A stretch of 25,062 nt of DNA from the IMG/VR virus record IMGVR_UViG_2703718822_000004; one strand, 5' to 3'. The position numbers were made by a program, and so were the translations under genes. The DNA is from a virus (lineage: Duplodnaviria > Heunggongvirae > Uroviricota > Caudoviricetes). The notes beneath the pieces were generated by a model. The model worked only from the letters and a program-made list of their open reading frames with translations. It did no database searches and was not told where the DNA came from. Shown in pieces: positions 22,207-25,062 of the stretch (position 1 is its first letter; every line of letters starts with the position of its first letter).

Positions 22207-22318
22207 GAATCCTCCCGGCCGGGATAATGTTCTGAGTCAGAGAAGGCACGGGCTGACCTCCGGAAACACAAAAGTCACACAGAAAAACAGCCCGCAAAAA
22301 AGAAATACGCCCTTACAG

Positions 22319-22348
22319 TTGCGCAAGGTGATTACTCTAAGGTATTAT
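22319..22348 (+). promoter_or_regulatory. Candidate sigma70 promoter TTGCGC-N18-TATTAT on the plus strand
   Basis: -35 TTGCGC (22319-22324), 18-nt spacer, -10 TATTAT (22343-22348); lies ~60 nt upstream of the plus-strand terminator at 22405-22431. Confidence 0.3.
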
Positions 22349-22404
22349 TAGGGTGCTGAATAAATTACTTCACGTTTTGTTATTTATTCCTTGCTTCCTT
22401 GCCA

Positions 22405-22431
22405 ACCGCTCTTCCCAGGAGCGGTTTTTTT
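22405..22431 (+). terminator. Plus-strand intrinsic terminator
   Basis: ACCGCTC-TTCCCAG-GAGCGGT hairpin followed by seven T. Confidence 0.5.
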
Positions 22432-22437
22432 ACATGT

Positions 22438-22462
22438 AAAAAGGCTCCTGCGATGAGGAGCC
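22438..22462 (-). terminator. Minus-strand intrinsic terminator at the 3' end of module A
   Basis: Hairpin GGCTCCT-GCGATG-AGGAGCC (22443-22462) followed on the minus strand by five T (plus A run 22438-22442); forms a back-to-back pair with 22405-22431. Confidence 0.5.
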
Positions 22463-22480
22463 TGGATGTATGCCTAATCT

Positions 22481-22690
22481 CTGTATACTGCATGGTGCCG
22501 GGTGCCTCCCGGTGAACAAATGTCCGTGATATCAGTCGGCCACACAGGAAATGATACGATATCACCCCTCCGCACAGGGGGATTCACCATGCCCGTTTTT
22601 TTTAACAAACTCCTCATCAATCAGACAATCATCAACCTCATGAATTGTGAGGAATTTAACATTTCACAACACAGCCTTTTCCCTGCATAA
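22481..22690. repeat. Structured noncoding module A (paralogue of module B)
   Basis: Shares with module B the blocks TGTATAC, GTGCCGGGTGCCTCCCGGT (hairpin CCGGG/CCCGG), CCCCTCCGCACAGGGGGATTCAC (hairpin CCCCT/AGGGG) and ATCAGACAAT...GAATTGTGAG...ATTTAACATTTC; central hairpin GTGATATC/GATATCAC (22526-22565) differs in sequence from B's but keeps the pairing. Contains a 33-codon ORF (22589-22690). Confidence 0.55.
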
Positions 22691-22712
22691 AAAAGCCCCT
22701 CCGGAGAGGGGC
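22689..22712 (-). terminator. Minus-strand intrinsic terminator at the 3' end of module B
   Basis: Hairpin GCCCCTC-CGGA-GAGGGGC (22695-22712) followed on the minus strand by six T (plus A run 22689-22694). Confidence 0.55.
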
Positions 22713-22720
22713 CGATCGCT

Positions 22721-22935
22721 ATGTATACACCATAAGCAGCATAGTGCCGGGTGCCTCCCGGTAGATTCAGCCTGACTACTGAATCTGCGTATTATGACCA
22801 TCGCTATGGAGACCATGTCAGACGCCCCTCCGCACAGGGGGATTCACTATGCTGGCTCGTTTTTACAAGACTTCCATCGATCAGACAATAGTCCATCAAC
22901 CGAATTGTGAGTCATTTAACATTTCCATGAGGTAA
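22721..22935. repeat. Structured noncoding module B (paralogue of module A)
   Basis: Same conserved blocks as module A; central hairpin AGATTCAG/CTGAATCT (22763-22786); contains a 28-codon ORF (22849-22935) whose ATG and upstream GGGGGA are conserved with module A. Confidence 0.55.
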
Positions 22936-23170
22936 CTGATATCCAGCTAACAATCATCTACAATGGACGAAGCCAGTTCCAGAACTTGCCCACGGTACAG
23001 CAACAACCACTGCATACACATAATTACCACCGGACTCTCTGAACCTGCCTCCTGGCTAACCCCAGATACAACACCACCAGTCACAAAAGCATCTTATTCT
23101 GAAGTACAACTGCCGTGCGGCAGATACTAAAAGCGCCTGTATGTAACAACATAAATATACAGGATATGTT

Positions 23171-23449
23171 TTATCCACGGGATATAATTTTGATTTCATC
23201 AAAACCGTTACTACCTGCAATTCTGTTGTACTCCTGAACAAGACTCAGTAACTCCGAATTAGCCGCGGTGAACTCCTCACAGACGTTCCGAAGTGCATCT
23301 ACATCCAGAAGAACCATCTCCTGACCTGAACGTCGATCAGGGGTACAAAATAAAACTGTCAGACGACTGAAGACCTTTGTTCGTTCCACATTGACGGCTT
23401 CAATACGCTGTAACAGTTGGCTACATCTGATTTTCTCATCAATATTCAC
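23171..23449 (-). CDS. Hypothetical 92-aa protein in AT-rich cargo region
   Basis: ORF begins with GTG and has a weak RBS; 92 stop-free codons in AT-rich DNA; directly downstream of the AraC-family gene on the same strand; no motif recognised. Confidence 0.35.
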   Translation of the reverse strand: MNIDEKIRCSQLLQRIEAVNVERTKVFSRLTVLFCTPDRRSGQEMVLLDVDALRNVCEEFTAANSELLSLVQEYNRIAGSNGFDEIKIISRG

Positions 23450-23538
23450 GCAAACACCAAATGATTATAACTCTTTATGCTGAACACATTCAGACTATAT
23501 CTAATACAGTCAATCAATATATGCCTGATGAAAAAACA

Positions 23539-24264
23539 TCAGATAACGTCTGCTTTCTGCAAATATGCATAGCTCTCAGGTGGTGCACCATAATACTGGT
23601 GAAATACAGAAATGAAATAGGACTTACTTGAGTAACCACATTTTTCCGCTATCGCTTGTCCACACTCTCGCTGGAAACATACAAGATTAACAGCAACACG
23701 CATTCGCTCCTCCAGCAACAACCGACTAAAGCTATAACCTTCATCCTTAAGTTTTCGCTTCAACAAGCTTTCGCTCATATGCAATTGTAATGCAATCACA
23801 CCTAGCATCCAGCCTGCCGATATGTCGGTCTGAATTATAGCCCTTACTTTACAGCTGATATTATTTACAGCACCGGACAAAAATAATGGCAGACGCCTGT
23901 CTGTTGCAAATAAGGAGATACATGAAAATGCGGTTATAACAGAGAAATCCTTCAAAGTATCACTGGATTCACTATGCTGGGTTATTAAAGCCTCCGCCAG
24001 TTCCGTATTGTAAATATCAGACATCAAATAAAGAGGCATTTTTGTCGGTGTATACTCCGTCAGTTCACACTCCCTTTCCAGATACTGATTGACGACGCTG
24101 TTACTTATATCTGCCATTTTCACTCTGTCGGCATAAGCACAGAAAAGCCCTCTTATATTTCTGGCAACAAGCATAACACTTCCGGCATCGAGTGAAACTT
24201 TTTCTTTTTCAAGAAAAATATCTATCGGATAGCGAATCAGGACCACAGAGCAGGCAACATCCAT
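23539..24264 (-). CDS. AraC/XylS-family transcriptional regulator
   Basis: 241 aa; C-terminal ~100 aa has the double helix-turn-helix AraC pattern (LLKRKLKDEGYSFSRLLLEERMRVAVNLV...IAEKCGYSSKSYFISVFHQYYGAPPESY); N-terminal domain unassigned; AT-rich codon usage unlike the structural genes. Confidence 0.8.
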   Translation of the reverse strand: MDVACSVVLIRYPIDIFLEKEKVSLDAGSVMLVARNIRGLFCAYADRVKMADISNSVVNQYLERECELTEYTPTKMPLYLMSDIYNTELAEALITQHSESSDTLKDFSVITAFSCISLFATDRRLPLFLSGAVNNISCKVRAIIQTDISAGWMLGVIALQLHMSESLLKRKLKDEGYSFSRLLLEERMRVAVNLVCFQRECGQAIAEKCGYSSKSYFISVFHQYYGAPPESYAYLQKADVI

Positions 24265-24327
24265 TTTGAATTAACCTGAGCAAAAAGACTTAATACCAGT
24301 ATATTCCAAAAATGGCATTTTGGGAGA

Positions 24328-25062
24328 TTACTTCTGCAAACCGCTCCCGCTAAATACATCCCTGATTTCCTGCGCAGTCTGTTCAAAACGCCCGGTATCC
24401 AGCTCAACGCCAGTTGCACGACGCCCCAGCGCCATCGCGGCTTTGACTGTCGAACCCGACCCCATGAAAAAATCTGCAACCAGGTCACCCGGACGACTGC
24501 TCGCGCTGATTATCTGCTGCAGCATTTCTGCCGGTTTTTCGCACGGATGTTTCCCGGGATAGTACTGCACCGGTTTATGCGTCCACACATCCGTGTACGG
24601 CACCTGCGCCGTCACGCCAAAATACCGCCGCAGATGCTTATATTCACTCTGCAGTTCCGCATACTGCCGGTTCAGTGAAGTATACGTCTCCAGCAGCTGG
24701 TGGTGGGGCTTTTCCAGTTCACCCCGCTGATGCTTCTCTTCTGCCACCCGGGCAAACAGCGCCTGTAATTTCAGATAATCACTTTCGTCCGGCAGTTGCC
24801 ACTGACTGGCACTGAACCAGTGCGACACCATGTTTTTCTTTCCTGTGGCATCCACAATCTGTTTTGCCGTTATCCCCAGGGCAGCGCGCGCATCACGAAA
24901 GTAAGCAATCAGCGGTGCCATCACATGCTGTTTCAGTGCCCTGCCCTTCGCCTCATACCCGGCATCTTTCGGACGATACGGCCCCTGATAATGTTCCGCG
25001 AACAGAATGCGCTCTGTGGCGGGGAAATACGCCCGCAGGCTTTCCTTGTTGCACCCGTTCCA
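24328..25062 (-). CDS. DNA methyltransferase (N6A/N4C beta-class), C-terminal portion; N-terminus beyond window end
   Basis: HPCEKP and DLVADFFMGSGSTVKAAMALGRRATGVELD match the C-terminal catalytic and AdoMet-binding (FxGSG) motifs of the N6_N4 methyltransferase family; the frame stays open to the window edge (translated manually upstream of 24924). Confidence 0.8.
   Translation of the reverse strand, partial: WNGCNKESLRAYFPATERILFAEHYQGPYRPKDAGYEAKGRALKQHVMAPLIAYFRDARAALGITAKQIVDATGKKNMVSHWFSASQWQLPDESDYLKLQALFARVAEEKHQRGELEKPHHQLLETYTSLNRQYAELQSEYKHLRRYFGVTAQVPYTDVWTHKPVQYYPGKHPCEKPAEMLQQIISASSRPGDLVADFFMGSGSTVKAAMALGRRATGVELDTGRFEQTAQEIRDVFSGSGLQK

Follow-up and report, generated by a model that had tools for sequence, protein, structure and literature searches.

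A probable accessory segment between the Q antiterminator and the lysis genes of lambdoid Escherichia coli prophages, carrying an AraC-like regulator paralogue and a small conserved protein

The object of this analysis is a block of genes at positions 22207-25062 of a 25,062-nt stretch of viral DNA (Caudoviricetes; IMG/VR record IMGVR_UViG_2703718822_000004). We refer to the whole stretch as the window; it ends inside a methyltransferase gene. From 17.6 to 25.1 kb, the minus strand is the coding strand for all genes, and in the direction of late transcription they follow each other in the order methyltransferase, AraC-like regulator, an open reading frame (ORF) of 92 aa (orf92), two STnc100 small RNA (sRNA) genes, nanS, holin, lysozyme and Rz. 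An initial annotation, made from the sequence alone, had listed the C-terminal part of a methyltransferase, an AraC-family regulator and a 92-aa ORF, and profile matches (PF01555, PF12833/PF00165 and phrog_2873, respectively) bear this gene list out. About 960 bp between orf92 and nanS contain no long ORFs; this ORF-poor spacer (22207-23170) holds the two STnc100 genes, which the initial annotation did not include. The window contains no tRNA gene and no restriction gene. The features of the block are the following, where numbers with an L denote comparison loci:

24328..25062, minus strand: DNA methyltransferase, C-terminal 244 aa of 355, open to the window end (PF01555 N6_N4_Mtase, E=4.5e-24)
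24377..24492, minus strand: stretch of the methylase 3' end that is duplicated in longer relatives and is predicted to mark the recombination join of two locus forms
23539..24264, minus strand: AraC/XylS-type regulator, 241 aa (PF12833 and PF00165, phrog_1450)
23171..23449, minus strand: orf92, conserved prophage protein of 92 aa (phrog_2873, E=1e-46 over residues 1-92)
23110..23123, minus strand: weak terminator-like hairpin about 50 nt 3' of orf92, from a pattern scan (L001 20918-20905, L028 8084-8097)
22685..22881, minus strand: STnc100 sRNA gene, upstream copy (RF02076, 120.8 bits), with an intrinsic terminator at 22694-22713
22432..22621, minus strand: STnc100 sRNA gene, downstream copy (RF02076, 141.3 bits), with an intrinsic terminator at 22442-22463
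20242..22206, minus strand: nanS-p type sialate O-acetylesterase (PF03629 SASA, PF08410 DUF1737, PF20350 DUF6645), the first gene downstream of the cargo

The base composition divides the block. The AraC-like gene (41.3% GC), orf92 (43.0%) and the spacer 22207-23170 (46.7%) are AT-rich; the methyltransferase part (55.5%) is close to nanS (56.2%) and the structural genes (57.2%). The description of methyltransferase, AraC-like gene and orf92 as uniformly AT-rich thus holds for the last two, together with the spacer, but not for the methyltransferase.

What appeared most peculiar about the block was the missing antiterminator. The initial annotation had seen no Q-like gene in the window, and a tblastn search with seven Q proteins of four families agrees (best E=0.3). 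Two readings had been offered for this absence: either Q lies beyond the window, with cargo genes between Q and the lysis genes, or late control is unusual. The sequence past position 25062 was read from relatives that share the block and were found by exact-protein look-up with the AraC-like protein and nanS. The closest of them is L028 (CP027484.1), with 1 mismatch in 13,821 nt against window positions 11242-25062; L026 and L027 have two mismatches each, L025 has three plus gaps, and L019/L029 (CP027328.1) show five differences in 11.5 kb. The genome of E. coli SMBL (NZ_CP061914.1) matches the block 22207-25062 at approximately 100%, but it is colinear with the window only from 17831 onward, at 96.8%. 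The best complete RefSeq E. coli genome covers 87% of the window, and none spans all of it.

Past position 25062, L019/L029 and L025-L028 continue with the remainder of the 355-aa methyltransferase and a 65-aa ORF with weak winged-helix/TrmB similarity (phrog_331), after which they diverge. L026, L027, L028 and L031 possess a gene for a PemK/MazF-like toxin and a Q protein of 229 aa (PF06323, E=6e-90), whose stop codon in L028 is located 1,618 nt past window position 25062. L019/L029, L030 and SMBL encode a different Q of 120 aa (PF06530, E=2.4e-45; stop 2,547 nt past the window end), which shares 45% identity with Q933 from the Stx2a phage Sp5. L025 has a lambda-type Q of 273 aa (PF03589, E=3.8e-51) directly ahead of the 65-aa ORF. 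Three unrelated Q families are joined to one and the same cargo block. Among relatives with the short form of the locus, in which the methylase abuts the AraC-like gene as in the window, a Q gene is present upstream in all 11 that were checked, 1.6-2.5 kb past the window end; in a twelfth, L032, the sequence ends too early to show the position of Q. The apparent lack of Q is an artefact of the window's end point, and the first of the two readings is supported. With regard to the prophage from which the window derives, the closest relative, L028, points to the PF06323 family. The premise behind the puzzle, namely a position of Q and its late promoter pR' directly ahead of the lysis genes, does not fit prophages of the enterohaemorrhagic E. 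coli (EHEC) type, where methylase, tRNAs, stx, AraC-like genes, sRNAs and nanS are routinely found between Q/pR' and the lysis genes.

The region between Q and nanS is rich in predicted signals of transcription termination. In L028, a promoter-like site (TTGCAA-17-TATATT) straddles the Q stop codon and is followed on the late strand, about 55-80 nt downstream, by a GC-rich hairpin with a T-run. Two more terminators lie ahead of the 65-aa ORF, with the PemK-like toxin gene between the first hairpin and these two, and another one stands right after the ORF. Weak terminators inside the AraC-like gene and after orf92 precede the two STnc100 terminators, so that the late strand from Q to nanS carries at least 8 hairpins of the intrinsic-terminator type. 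Compared with shuffled sequence, such sites are enriched in both L028 (17 versus 4.4 +/- 2.2 expected) and SMBL (16 versus 5.1 +/- 2.4 expected). In SMBL, the stretch ahead of the first hairpin can be aligned with the region of Sakai Sp5 that holds TTTACG-16-TATCAT. From the start predicted for this Sp5 site to the last T of the second terminator (tR') it is exactly 258 nt, and 258 nt is also the distance between PR' and tR' mapped experimentally by Sy et al. (PMC7547250); their coordinate was matched to Sp5 under an inferred shift of 142 nt between genome versions. In Sakai Sp6, the alignment shows a lambda-like TTGATT-16-TGgTAAATT site and then AACGATGGG, ahead of the same conserved hairpin. 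To judge from these motifs, the region would have the standard lambdoid layout, in which a constitutive late promoter at Q is followed by a chain of terminators, and we see no sign of unusual late control.

A segment of about 145 bp, which begins with a strong hairpin with T7 and extends as far as the 65-aa ORF's start, hardly varies among prophages with different Q families (L001 23540-23683; L028 about 5319-5463; L007 7247-7391; others). It may serve as a recombination boundary that allows Q modules and cargo modules to be shuffled. Between Q and the 65-aa ORF, the relatives carry different genes. A convergent two-gene cassette (L001 23923-25411, plus strand; also in L019/L029 and L030) matches the PADLOC candidate system PDC-M53A/B (E=8.8e-31 and 1.1e-54), and it is placed between the Q933-like Q gene and the pR'-like region of that Q. 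At the same spot, other relatives have the PemK-like toxin (L026-L028 and L031; L028 4760-5122), a KwaB-like gene or a CPBP protease, the last two with examples listed for H153 and L009 21312-22130. The Q/pR' junction looks like an insertion hot spot.

The methyltransferase is 355 aa long where the relatives contain the full gene (PF01555, E=3.3e-43 for the full protein). A TDPPY motif near the N-terminus and DFFMGSGST, the FxGxG motif for S-adenosylmethionine, near the C-terminus follow the order of the beta class; DFFMGSGST alone falls inside the window. The SMBL protein is identical to M.EcoGII at 320 of 348 residues (92%) and shows 96% identity to the methylase of phage 1720a-02, an enzyme that Murray et al. 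describe as closely resembling M.EcoGII (PMC5778455). M.EcoGII itself, a prophage enzyme, methylates adenine regardless of context and is silent in the lysogen; its authors suggest that it is switched on at induction (PMC5778455). With M.EcoGII and M.EcoGI, which come from prophages of E. coli O104:H4, the window-type enzyme shares this similarity over 348 residues, the DPPY motif, the recognition domain, the FxGxG motif and the lack of a restriction partner. It differs in its last 25 or so residues and in length (355 aa versus 349), and its C-terminus is that of the 3' methylase fragment beside the AraC gene in longer relatives. Many Stx2a, Stx2c and Stx2d phages, as well as phiP27, carry related methylase genes, and a query over the 3' part of the gene and the junction matches 1867 of 5426 complete E. 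coli genomes, i.e. about a third. We predict from this similarity that the methyltransferase is an orphan N6-adenine enzyme of the beta class, of the M.EcoGI/M.EcoGII type. The initial annotation had remarked that the gene has no partner restriction gene in the window; we see none either, and for an orphan of the M.EcoGII type this is to be expected. By analogy with M.EcoGII, it is most likely a late-expressed anti-restriction function. The suggestion that it is lysogenic-conversion cargo is probably not correct, given its M.EcoGII type, the silence of M.EcoGII in the lysogen and its GC content of 55.5%.

Next to the short form of the locus there is a long one (L002, L015-L018, L020 and L022-L024), which consists of a methylase (352 aa), tRNA-Ile, tRNA-Arg, a TolA-like gene, a 3' methylase fragment and the AraC gene. 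Window positions 22565-24492 and 24377-25062 match two sites about 1.4 kb apart in the long-form loci, and in L002 the methylase fragment next to the AraC gene has the same terminal residues as the methylase of the window. According to these alignments, the two forms differ by recombination in the repeated 3' end of the methylase, about 115 bp long, which would also be the reason why the short form has no tRNA genes. The direction of the recombination could not be decided, and either form could be ancestral. Among 5426 complete genomes, SMBL alone has the methylase-AraC junction, but in the wider public collection the junction is not unique to it: the short-form relatives that encode the exact nanS protein, which has index entries in 140 blocks, share it.

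The AraC-like regulator has a double helix-turn-helix at residues 158-232 (PF12833, E=2.6e-12, 47.3 bits against a cut-off of 33.6; PF00165, E=1.4e-10, 41.5 bits against 26.6) and matches phrog_1450 (E=4.8e-92). The YdeO model is matched over residues 1-230 (E=1.4e-34) at 119.8 bits, which is under its equivalog cut-off of 348, and the GadX model reaches 92.6 bits against a cut-off of 500. Full-length BLASTP identities amount to 35% with GadW, 31% with YdeO and 31% with AppY; for GadX and EnvY, the alignment is confined to the DNA-binding domain. The nearest relatives are proteins of 237 aa encoded in the same slot between Q and the tRNA genes in O157:H7 prophages and in phage phiSTEC1575-Stx2k, with 58-59% identity. 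The connection that the initial annotation had drawn to AraC-family regulators of EHEC prophages was hence well founded. Nor is the ORF a pseudogene in related strains, an outcome that would have spoken against a functional regulator: it is intact, and the public collection lists the exact protein in 4020 blocks. Among 5426 complete E. coli genomes, some 80 (about 1.5%) carry the DNA of the AraC-like gene and orf92 at 99% identity or more.

Between themselves, the two paralogues from O157:H7 share 90.7% identity, and one of them is located in the region of EDL933 that corresponds to OI-57. Reviews give 90% for PsrA versus PsrB and assign psrA to z1789 in OI-50 and psrB to z2104 in OI-57 (PMC10877973, PMC8565820). 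Because of their mutual identity and the OI-57 location, the paralogues are probably PsrA and PsrB, and the OI-57 gene, the probable psrB, is placed between Q and nanS in the same slot in which the window has its regulator. We found no AraC-like homologue in OI-50 of EDL933 (L008, EDL933 1625001-1675000, resequenced) or in Sakai Sp6 (L007), where the reviews put psrA, and the names of sequence clusters provide no link between the names PsrA and PsrB and the paralogues. The paralogue that is 90.7% identical to the OI-57 gene was observed in the yccA-adjacent prophage of WS4202 (L009), a strain derived from CIP 106327. PsrB and PatE activate the acid-resistance genes gadE and hdeA, and PsrA and PsrB have an indirect repressive effect on type III secretion and the LEE (locus of enterocyte effacement) (PMC10877973, a review). 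The regulator of the window shares family, full-length architecture and the N-terminal M-x-V-CSV start with PsrA, PsrB, PatE, GadW, YdeO and AppY, but differs from them at the identities given above and by scoring under the NCBIfam cut-offs for YdeO and GadX. On these comparisons, it is best regarded as a distinct paralogue and as the ortholog of no named regulator (YdeO, GadX, PsrA, PsrB). As far as we searched the literature, no study of this allele was found.

Downstream of the regulator, orf92 is a real conserved gene. Its homologue in E2348/69 (L004 4958-5233) is 61% identical and has the same GTG start and the same stop, with no indels in between, and the nucleotide differences fall 23/23/44 on the three codon positions. 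Since many genomes have no annotation on the homologous DNA, a non-coding RNA in place of orf92 was considered, but it was rejected on account of the conserved frame, the excess of third-position changes and the lack of an Rfam match. The PGAP pipeline leaves orf92 unannotated in SMBL and E2348/69; another pipeline called it in L024. Roughly 1,800 complete E. coli genomes match, and the records sampled from them give 'none' for the homologous DNA. The family is small, with 18 representatives at 50% clustering and one sequenced phage, and orf92 has no match in Pfam, NCBIfam or PADLOC. An AlphaFold2 model based on an alignment of 11 sequences (pLDDT 91.3) consists of two long helices with a beta-hairpin between them. 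A Foldseek search of this model against the PDB yields nothing significant: prefoldin beta subunits lead at E about 0.05, and the other matches below significance are designed helical hairpins and the anti-activator TraM (2q0o, TM 0.72, E about 0.5).

The two STnc100 copies are both full-length (model positions 1-206 of 206; Rfam RF02076, gathering score 47), and each of them ends in its own intrinsic terminator. Published descriptions put STnc100 75 nt downstream from stx2, ahead of nanS-type esterases; furthermore, PasA and PasD are linked to esterase genes, and PasD is grouped with STnc100. The copies of the window resemble these prophage sRNAs in being full-length, in having a terminator of their own and in their placement just upstream of a nanS-type esterase gene. 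They differ in that two copies stand in tandem at the position where stx phages have stx and then one STnc100. In SMBL, isrK and Trp_leader gave weak Rfam matches (E about 0.7-0.85) ahead of the 65-aa ORF, which were discarded; they reflect the terminator hairpin only.

Taken together, the block very probably represents accessory ('moron') genes in the promoter-proximal part of the late operon of a lambdoid E. coli prophage, with canonical control by Q, pR' and terminator read-through. Lambdoid prophages of the Stx/EHEC type (933W/Sp5, phiSTEC1575-Stx2k, CP-933O of O157:H7, and E2348/69) show the same order and strand: Q, a short pR' leader with one or more terminators, the 65-aa ORF, a methylase and/or an AraC-like gene, the tRNA/stx slot, an sRNA of the STnc100 type, nanS-p, holin, lysozyme and Rz. 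The equivalent slot in O157:H7, E2348/69 and the Stx2k phage is filled with methylase, AraC-like gene, tRNAs and stx. The similarity to these prophages extends to the control region, since Q of two relatives of the window is the one with 45% identity to Q933, and the pR' region of SMBL is the one that aligns with Sp5. Unlike them, the block of the window has no stx and no tRNA genes, its methylase abuts the AraC-like gene, and STnc100 is duplicated; its relatives also differ in what is inserted between Q and the 65-aa ORF (the PemK-like toxin or the PDC-M53 candidate pair).

According to this model, transcripts from pR' would stop at the first terminators in the lysogen, and after induction RNA polymerase modified by Q would read through all of them. 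The M.EcoGII-type methylase would then be made late and would methylate adenines of the progeny DNA without sequence specificity, which could protect it from restriction in the next host; an enzyme that protects progeny DNA non-specifically would therefore need no restriction partner. The AT-rich AraC-like gene and orf92 may represent a separately acquired insert. By analogy with PsrA, PsrB and PatE, the regulator would probably have a promoter of its own for expression in the lysogen and would activate gadE and hdeA, and the STnc100 copies would act as independent sRNA units.

Several observations weigh against this account. Upstream of the AraC gene and of orf92, we found no promoter with a sigma-70 consensus of the kind that lysogenic expression of the regulator from its own promoter would call for. 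In a simple scan, promoter-like sites are not enriched over shuffled sequences (14 versus 12.1 +/- 4.1; 8 versus 7.5 +/- 2.8), and the promoters of the region are known as consensus or homology matches only. With 58-59% identity to the O157:H7 paralogues, the regulator may have different targets, and we infer the names PsrA and PsrB for these paralogues. The relatives disagree on the Q family and do not fix the type and distance of Q for the genome of the window. Finally, the M.EcoGII query (PMC11551740, Table S1) is a machine reading of a PDF supplement.

Alternative explanations have to be considered. One could propose that late control is indeed unusual, i.e. that there is no Q and that the late genes depend for their activation on the AraC-like regulator or on some other gene of the block; the window itself contains no Q, and a regulator of the activator type is located upstream of the lysis genes. 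This is very improbable in the light of the Q genes upstream in the 11 short-form relatives, the promoter-like site or pR' homologue next to Q and the stacked terminators from there down to nanS, as control by antitermination predicts. Moreover, the AraC-like gene is missing from many prophages with the same layout of methylase, nanS and lysis genes, and the regulator belongs to the clade of the host regulators GadW, YdeO and AppY. Equally, it is most unlikely that the methyltransferase is one half of a restriction-modification or other defence system with its partner just past the window. The window lacks a partner, and there are defence-like cassettes near Q in the relatives (the PDC-M53A/B candidate pair, the PemK-like toxin and the KwaB-like gene); yet these cassettes vary from one relative to another while the methylase is constant, the gene directly upstream of the methylase is always the 65-aa winged-helix-like ORF, and no nuclease domain is adjacent to the methylase in the relatives. 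The high identity to M.EcoGII, a characterised non-specific orphan, and the matches to the 3' part of the gene in a third of the complete E. coli genomes likewise speak against a dedicated partner.

The relationship between the AraC-like gene and orf92 can also be read in more than one way. The two genes are adjacent on the same strand, 89 nt apart, with the same low GC content, and they travel together in the 80 or so complete genomes mentioned above; the orf92 model is a helical hairpin, and TraM is among its weak fold matches. From this one might conclude that they form a functional pair, for instance an activator with an anti-activator or a chaperone, and are not unrelated cargo. We consider such a pair quite unlikely: orf92-like DNA without this AraC gene is found in E2348/69 and roughly 1,800 other genomes, the regulator paralogues of O157:H7 and the Stx2k phage have no orf92 beside them, and the fold matches are non-significant and typical of any helical hairpin. 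A broader version, in which both genes make up a lysogenic-conversion module whose regulator has a different regulon or signal and whose orf92 modulates the regulator (e.g. as an anti-activator) or acts on a host factor, is speculative and unlikely as well.

Outside the block, two further genes of the window deserve mention:

18396-18845, minus strand: P22_AR_N antirepressor-type ORF, 149 aa, between the lysozyme and Rz genes, within the lysis cassette
1096-2250, minus strand: general porin gene, 384 aa (PF00267, E=5.9e-144)

The porin gene, situated in an AT-rich island (GC 0.37-0.43), has a tail gene on either side, at 188-928 (tail protein L) and at 2449-2790, and is likely to be a second cargo gene of the window.

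The accessory segment read here between Q and the lysis genes has an architecture that is already known, and nothing in it departs from known biology; the little-studied remainder consists of the regulator paralogue and the 92-aa protein. The former is paralogous to the AraC-like regulators with which prophages tune the acid resistance and virulence of EHEC, and the latter, small and conserved among prophages, is often passed over by standard annotation. Both could play a part in the way in which such prophages reprogram their hosts.

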